From Escherichia coli (GTDB lineage Bacteria; Pseudomonadota; Gammaproteobacteria; Enterobacterales; Enterobacteriaceae), in assembly GCF_003334255.1 (NCBI RefSeq), contig NZ_QOWU01000134.1: DNA of 2,413 nucleotides; one strand, given 5' to 3'. How positions within the stretch are numbered: position 1 is the stretch's first letter; each line of letters opens with the position of its first letter. Shown here piece by piece: positions 686-789 of this stretch. The notes beneath the pieces are model-generated. The model did not search any database. It was not told the origin of the DNA and worked only from the letters and a program-made list of their open reading frames with translations. The translations under genes were made by a program, and so were the position numbers.

Positions 686-749
686 CAGGACAGTGTAACT
701 TTACGTTTCCTCAAACGCAGTTCATCACATGAGGCGGATGAACCTGCGA

Positions 750-758
750 ATTATAACA
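750..758 (-). promoter_or_regulatory. Candidate extended -10 element (TGtTATAAT) in the lom-stf spacer
   Basis: Reverse complement of plus 750..758 is TGTTATAAT, a perfect TATAAT hexamer with TG one base upstream. I found no convincing -35 at 16 to 18 bp spacing. It lies about 35 nt after the lom stop and about 65 nt before the hairpin. Confidence 0.25.
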
Positions 759-789
759 ATGTTTGCAGAAGATAAATCGTCATATACTC

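Follow-up and report, generated by a model that had tools for sequence, protein, structure and literature searches.

In pathogenic E. coli, the regulation of host genes is known to be rewired by prophage-encoded small RNAs such as AgvB, AsxR, StxS, the Pas RNAs and HnrS. Several well-known RNAs have an architecture that is of relevance for the locus presented here, a block between the prophage genes lom and stf: sRNAs of the DapZ/MicL type are located in 3' untranslated regions, where they have their own promoter and use the terminator of the upstream gene, and IpeX is encoded 3' of nmpC, a porin gene of a prophage. Like these RNAs, the block adjoins a protein-coding gene, in this case for an outer-membrane protein of a lambdoid prophage, and both have the same terminator. 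Unlike in the DapZ/MicL type, its predicted promoter follows the stop codon and does not lie within the coding sequence; moreover, the block has no sequence or Rfam match, and its RNA is here predicted from the sequence. The OOP RNA of phage lambda, 77 nt long and antisense to cII, also has its own promoter and terminator. The block resembles OOP since it would encode a short phage RNA, with promoter and intrinsic terminator less than 100 nt apart, but this RNA would overlap nothing on the other strand, and a complementary site is absent from the full genome of a carrier phage. Finally, morons were reportedly described by Juhala et al. in 2000 as promoter-gene-terminator units inserted between phage genes, and lom itself is regarded as accessory cargo expressed in the lysogen. 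Like a moron, the block is a self-standing unit that brings along a promoter-like element and a terminator, and it is found at this site in some phages but is lacking there in phages that are otherwise similar; in contrast to morons, its cargo would be a non-coding RNA, adjoining lom.

In prophages of this kind, the tail operon can harbor a validated Hfq-dependent sRNA, PasB (EcOnc22-24; PMC8550237; PMC4104026). With about 83 nt and an intrinsic terminator, PasB is like the predicted RNA embedded among tail genes, but it is encoded on the opposite strand, in the gap that separates the tail genes I and J, and the two sequences are unrelated. In prophage PP6 of strain E2348/69, PasB occupies positions 1466261-1466343 of NC_011601.1, 4.4 kb upstream of the block. 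An identity of the two is ruled out by the I/J location, the opposite strand and the mismatch to the probe sequence. Full-length PasB is present in about a dozen of the 60 carrier loci for which enough upstream DNA is available; the other matches are mostly confined to a 25-nt piece, and 18 carrier loci have none. Other described RNAs were rejected as well: no entry in the EcOnc list of O157 Sakai fits the block, and the prophages Sp11, Sp14 and Sp15 of this strain carry a short spacer at the site (see below), while HnrS (EcOnc10-12) differs in its location in the prophage, its size (66 nt) and its distribution. The O157 Hfq screen did not consider sites closer than 100 bp to a coding region, and an RNA from a spacer of 151 nt would therefore have been missed. 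In E2348/69, the locus tags that flank the block are absent from tables S5 (features) and S6 (new sRNAs) of the Hfq RIL-seq study (Pearl Mizrahi et al. 2021), which covered two growth conditions and in which PasB, 4.4 kb away, is abundant; judged from these two tables, the block is not represented among the Hfq-bound transcripts. Among the papers searched in full text, none matched fragments of the block in either orientation or the E2348/69 locus tags, and published start-site data for a carrier strain were not found either. The motif described below most likely drives a previously unreported RNA of about 90 bases with its end at the hairpin.

The window, i. e. the complete stretch of 2,413 nt of E. 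coli DNA that was analysed, matches the lambdoid prophage P-EibA of E. coli ECOR-9 (AF151091.1) with 100% identity, but runs in the opposite direction, and its reverse complement corresponds to the J'–lom–stf region of this prophage. The genes are thus encoded on the minus strand: a 3' segment of J, whose stop codon occupies 1459..1457 according to the list of open reading frames, is followed by lom (790..1389), annotated in AF151091.1 and encoding an Ail/Lom outer-membrane beta-barrel protein of 199 amino acids, and by the 5' part of the orf-401-like side tail fibre gene stf (1..638), which was assigned from its translation and the annotation of AF151091.1. As a correction to a preliminary description of the window, the TGA of lom is placed at 792..790 and the ATG of stf at 638..636, and this leaves a spacer of 151 nt (789..639). 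The stf ribosome-binding site GGGAGAA is found at 649..643 of the minus strand. A hairpin scan revealed a terminator-like hairpin after J (GGGCACCAGAAATGGTGCC followed by a T-run; 1438..1419, minus strand), between the J stop codon and the ribosome-binding site of lom. With hairpins on each side, lom is bracketed by terminators, as is expected of separately expressed cargo. From about residue 135, the N-terminal region of Stf passes into Gly-X-Y collagen-like repeats (window 1-240, minus strand), which give rise to spurious proline/glycine-rich reading frames on the plus strand. Another plus-strand reading frame, for 67 amino acids (529..732), runs antisense over the stf start and the terminator.

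On the minus strand of the spacer, the positions 758..750 read TGTTATAAT, an extended -10 motif composed of the TG at 758..757 and the hexamer TATAAT at 755..750, and so the consensus element that had been noted earlier on the gene-coding strand is indeed present. The pattern TGNTATAAT occurs only once in the whole window, both strands counted, as compared to an expectation of 0.03 matches by chance, and at least one match was obtained in 5 of 200 shuffles; for the spacer alone, a match on the coding strand was found in 0.55% of 20,000 dinucleotide shuffles. The spacer had been called AT-rich, but this is true only in relative terms as its G+C content is 43%. The idea that the motif might be a coincidence of AT-rich DNA is unlikely since the match is improbable by chance and the TG as well as the key positions of the hexamer are conserved in four lineages. 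A convincing -35 region is lacking, in agreement with the preliminary description: across the four lineages, the best candidate (TTTATC) has three of six matches at a spacing of 15 bp, and there are zero to two matches at 16-19 bp. As expected for a site without a -35 region, a standard two-hexamer promoter scan detected no sigma-70-type site in the window on either strand. The motif has the hallmarks of a sigma-70 extended -10 promoter, i. e. the TGn element and a TATAAT-like hexamer with an A in its second and a T in its sixth position. With the usual sigma-70 spacing, transcription is predicted to start on the minus strand at A745, G744 or G743 (743..745), 5-7 nt after the hexamer. The promoter-like motif between lom and stf is real and conserved.

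Downstream of the motif, the hairpin scan identified an intrinsic terminator (element 652..686, minus strand) with a stem at 686..657 and eight T's at 659..652 (-20.5 kcal/mol). The earlier statement that a promoter at this site would fire into a hairpin about 65 nt downstream holds, as the hairpin begins 64 nt past the hexamer. A stem of 13 pairs and a run of 6-8 T's are present in all lineages, and the substitutions between lineages are all wobbles or affect the loop; with at least six residues, the U-tail of this rho-independent terminator is as found in Hfq-dependent sRNAs. The terminator would end lom transcripts, too. An RNA that starts at 743-745 and ends in the U-run would be about 90-95 nt long, and it is predicted to fold with -34.3 kcal/mol (z = -3.3 against shuffles). 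In this predicted fold, a 5' stem-loop (GGUUCAUC...GAUGAACU; 719..744, minus strand), in which 92% of the cells are paired without any double changes, shows G-U wobbles as the only changes in the stem and has a variable loop. It is followed by the most conserved stretch (687..718, minus strand), for which the fold and the unpaired probabilities suggest a weak second hairpin (718..703), broken in one lineage, and the unpaired sequence AAAGUUACACUGUCCU (702..687). In this structural model, 687..718 is a candidate target-pairing region. A hairpin, an open middle part and a terminator with a U-tail are the usual build of enterobacterial base-pairing sRNAs.

When the lineages are compared, the block 776..652 stands out as better conserved than the coding sequences of lom and stf on its two sides: identities between lineages are 78-93% for the promoter block (776..750), 73-100% for the 5' hairpin, 87-100% for 718..687 and 79-95% for the terminator with the T-run, as compared to 35-72% for the last 300 nt of lom and 51-89% for the first 300 nt of stf. 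Higher variability is also seen in the 16 nt at 792..777, which comprise the lom stop codon and the following spacer, and in the 12 nt that precede the stf ATG. Accordingly placed are the ends of the BLAST homology to divergent phages and genomes, which begins at about 776-779, just upstream of the -10 motif, and stops at about 653-654, at the end of the T-run. The conservation includes the sequence upstream of the -10 motif (TTTATCTTCTGCAAACAT; 759..776, minus strand), in which 14 of 18 columns are invariant in the alignment of the four lineages; this segment spans the place of a -35 region, and it has no match to TTGACA. Among 129 related copies, the -10 motif reads TGTTATGAT in 110, TGGTATAAT in 10, TGTTATAAT in seven and TGCTATAAT in one, and it is broken in one copy (TTGCAATGT). 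The perfect TATAAT is thus a minority form, and the majority hexamer is TATGAT; 128 of the 129 copies retain the A in the second and the T in the sixth position of the hexamer, and the TG is invariant across all 13 distinct variants. In the four lineages, the TG and the hexamer positions 1, 2, 3, 5 and 6 are fixed; variation is seen at the free N (T, G or C) and at hexamer position 4 (A or G). When four lineage representatives were compared, 11 of 28 columns were variable in free positions (the N, hexamer position 4, the discriminator and the loops), but only 8 of 63 in the stems, the key -10 positions and the T-run (Fisher p = 0.01; p = 0.03 upon inclusion of the variant with the broken promoter). 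This pattern provides modest support for the promoter-RNA model, as the classes were defined after the fold had been seen and the lineages are few. For the structure, counting of base pairs in E. coli, to which the diversity in these counts is limited, yielded 95.7% paired cells and zero double (compensatory) changes, and conservation of the structure is therefore inseparable from shared ancestry. In a natural variant (L113, an IMG/VR contig), the -10 motif is destroyed by a 1-nt deletion and substitutions (TTGCAATGTAC), and the downstream RNA part is unchanged.

The spacer between lom and stf exists in two forms, the 151-nt form with the block and a 64-nt form that consists of a terminator only and is found in the Rac prophage of K-12 and in Sp11, Sp14 and Sp15 of Sakai. 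The short form is present in about 52 and the long form in about 27 of the 80 closest lom loci from viral contigs, and one locus has an unrelated sequence after lom; a further recurrent form was not observed among these 80 loci. The two forms can be aligned at the flanks only, and the block thus behaves as a unit that was inserted or replaced, present or absent at one site between conserved phage genes as is typical of morons. Moreover, as a plain terminator of 64 nt suffices at this site, the long form carries extra, separable content. The 151-nt spacer block is present in 1650 of 5426 complete E. coli genomes (about 30%), with an Ail/Lom gene and a tail-fibre gene as its neighbours in nearly all cases. 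The carriers include the EPEC strain E2348/69, in which prophage PP6 harbors the majority form (NC_011601.1 1470637-1470787), O157:H7 strains, O104:H4, the UPEC strain UTI89 and ST131-type O25b:H4.

The layout of a promoter, about 90 nt and a terminator fits an sRNA gene better than a leader of stf. The most likely reading, to which we give about an even chance, is that the block, found in some of the lambdoid tail modules, is a self-contained gene of this kind, running from its own promoter to a terminator that is shared with lom. The RNA polymerase with sigma-70 would recognise TGnTAT(A/G)AT without a -35 region and start near 743-745; the transcript would consist of the 5' hairpin and the highly conserved, largely unpaired stretch and stop at 686..652. 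In the lysogen, lom transcripts would end at the same terminator, whereas Q-modified late transcription would continue past it as far as stf. Most likely, the RNA would act in trans by base pairing via 718..687, possibly with the help of Hfq. As such, the block would be a new candidate among the sRNAs encoded by prophages.

Other explanations assign the block to its neighbours. It might simply consist of the 3' untranslated region of lom, including the terminator, and be joined to the stf message at its 5' end, with a -10 motif that is silent or of negligible activity, and its conservation would then reflect recent horizontal spread or a homologous crossover point between tail modules. The alleles of lom and stf do assort independently on either side of the block: the 5' end of stf in the window is 88% identical to lineage C and 62% to the majority, whereas for the 3' end of lom the affinities are reversed (54% to lineage C versus 72% to the majority), and these opposite affinities point to a recombination junction at the block. 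Moreover, the absence of a RIL-seq signal in the EPEC tables, the lack of covariation and the existence of one variant that retains the rest of the block without the -10 motif would all be in agreement with such a linker. Yet, as judged from the short form, a 64-nt terminator is enough for this job, the differences between lineages avoid the promoter-critical and stem positions, the block persists without lom, and an extended -10 motif with a perfect or 5/6 hexamer is improbable by chance. We consider the combination of a silent motif and conservation by spread or crossover, the main rival of the sRNA gene, to be rather unlikely, if clearly worth bearing in mind. Alternatively, the promoter might drive stf (and tfa), with the hairpin as a conditional attenuator that allows expression of the tail fibre independently of Q; a short regulated leader of stf had indeed been proposed before. 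The geometry would suit this idea, as the promoter is followed by a leader of about 90 nt, the terminator and, 3-9 nt past the U-run, the stf ribosome-binding site. In addition, if the RNA of the window is cut before the 3' arm of the terminator, it can refold using the 5' arm (-20.0 kcal/mol), but the required pairing GUGAUG/CGUCAC no longer exists in the majority form, which has GGGGUG, or in lineage C, where the loop reads AUUACU. This fold is specific to the lineage of the window and was rejected as an antiterminator. A conserved leader reading frame was not found, as a 10-codon frame from 783 is present only in the lineage of the window; the terminator is strong (13 pairs and 6-8 U's), and the block is retained even if stf is dead. 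For these reasons, the proposed stf leader was not supported, and we regard it as improbable.

The plus strand of the spacer harbors a TATACT hexamer at 783..788, as reported in the preliminary description, and it might act as a promoter for antisense transcription into lom. However, the hexamer belongs to the one segment of the spacer that is not conserved, the 13 nt 3' of the lom stop codon (777..789, minus strand; 50-69% identity between lineages): the majority form of this segment is CAACAGACGCCGA, and TATACT is thus not conserved but missing from the majority and from the other lineages. As the promoter scan did not reveal a sigma-70-type site on either strand either, antisense transcription from this site is extremely improbable, and the earlier view of TATACT as the less plausible of the two elements can be maintained. 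The relation to the flanking genes is illustrated by a decayed prophage remnant that is common to 11 genomes. In this remnant, lom has been cleanly deleted, stf has ATT instead of ATG and carries frameshifts, and the J fragment is only 76% identical to its relatives, with gaps; the block is gapless, and the motif TGCTATAAT, the stems and the T-run are intact. This retention, although a single evolutionary event, argues against a role that is tied only to lom or stf.

To come back to the sRNA gene, the persistence of an intact block after the decay of its neighbours would mean that the host has adopted the sRNA as a regulator. We put forward, tentatively and with some doubt, the possibility that about 30% of the complete E. 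coli genomes, including several pathotypes, have an unannotated sRNA gene in the tail region of a lambdoid prophage, and that it serves as a host-adopted regulator. If the block is transcribed, it is a candidate for a widespread prophage sRNA that is not confined to one pathotype, and the lom-stf junction would turn out to be a site that accommodates RNA cargo; a silent block would simply be a conserved linker and an ordinary finding.

Targets of the predicted RNA were sought in the window and in one complete phage genome, and no complementary target was identified in either. The best duplex of the predicted RNA with cis targets in the window (-22.1 kcal/mol) is no better than the mean of the shuffles (-22.9 kcal/mol), and in the complete carrier phage PhiR5_1, the longest complement is 13 nt long, terminator-like and within the range of the shuffles. 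With Rfam 15, which includes AgvB, AsxR, Esr41 and STnc100, no match to the whole window was obtained at E-values up to 1; for the segment 630..800, the best hit was rli42 with 21.6 bits as compared to a gathering score of 80, and it aligns a generic hairpin-plus-terminator end. A LexA binding site was also considered and rejected, as a CTGTA half-site is present in the majority form and the second half-site is missing.

Beyond complete E. coli genomes, the block was found in only 5 of 50,697 phage records, and a scan of one genome per species (100,044 species) yielded a single match, an E. coli-like prophage contig in a Collinsella metagenome-assembled genome. This 4.3-kb contig (JAIJJM010000250.1, 'Collinsella sp.') contains lom, the block in its majority form and stf at 2560-2820, and its assignment is almost certainly due to a binning error. 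A few individual loci show further peculiarities. In the copy L080 (IMGVR_UViG_2563366803_000005), the sequence diverges right after the T-run of the terminator (GTGCACAGAAAACCCCCAGCTAGGCTGGGGG...), and the block thus has its 3' edge at a rearrangement junction. In two short spacers (L008, 4986-5049; L130, 5488-5551), the sequence TGTTATGAC abuts the terminator stem, recalling the TGTTATGAT of the long form; the two sequences are not placed together by the alignment. Finally, five loci with the short form (e. g. L187) have GTGCACA after the terminator.
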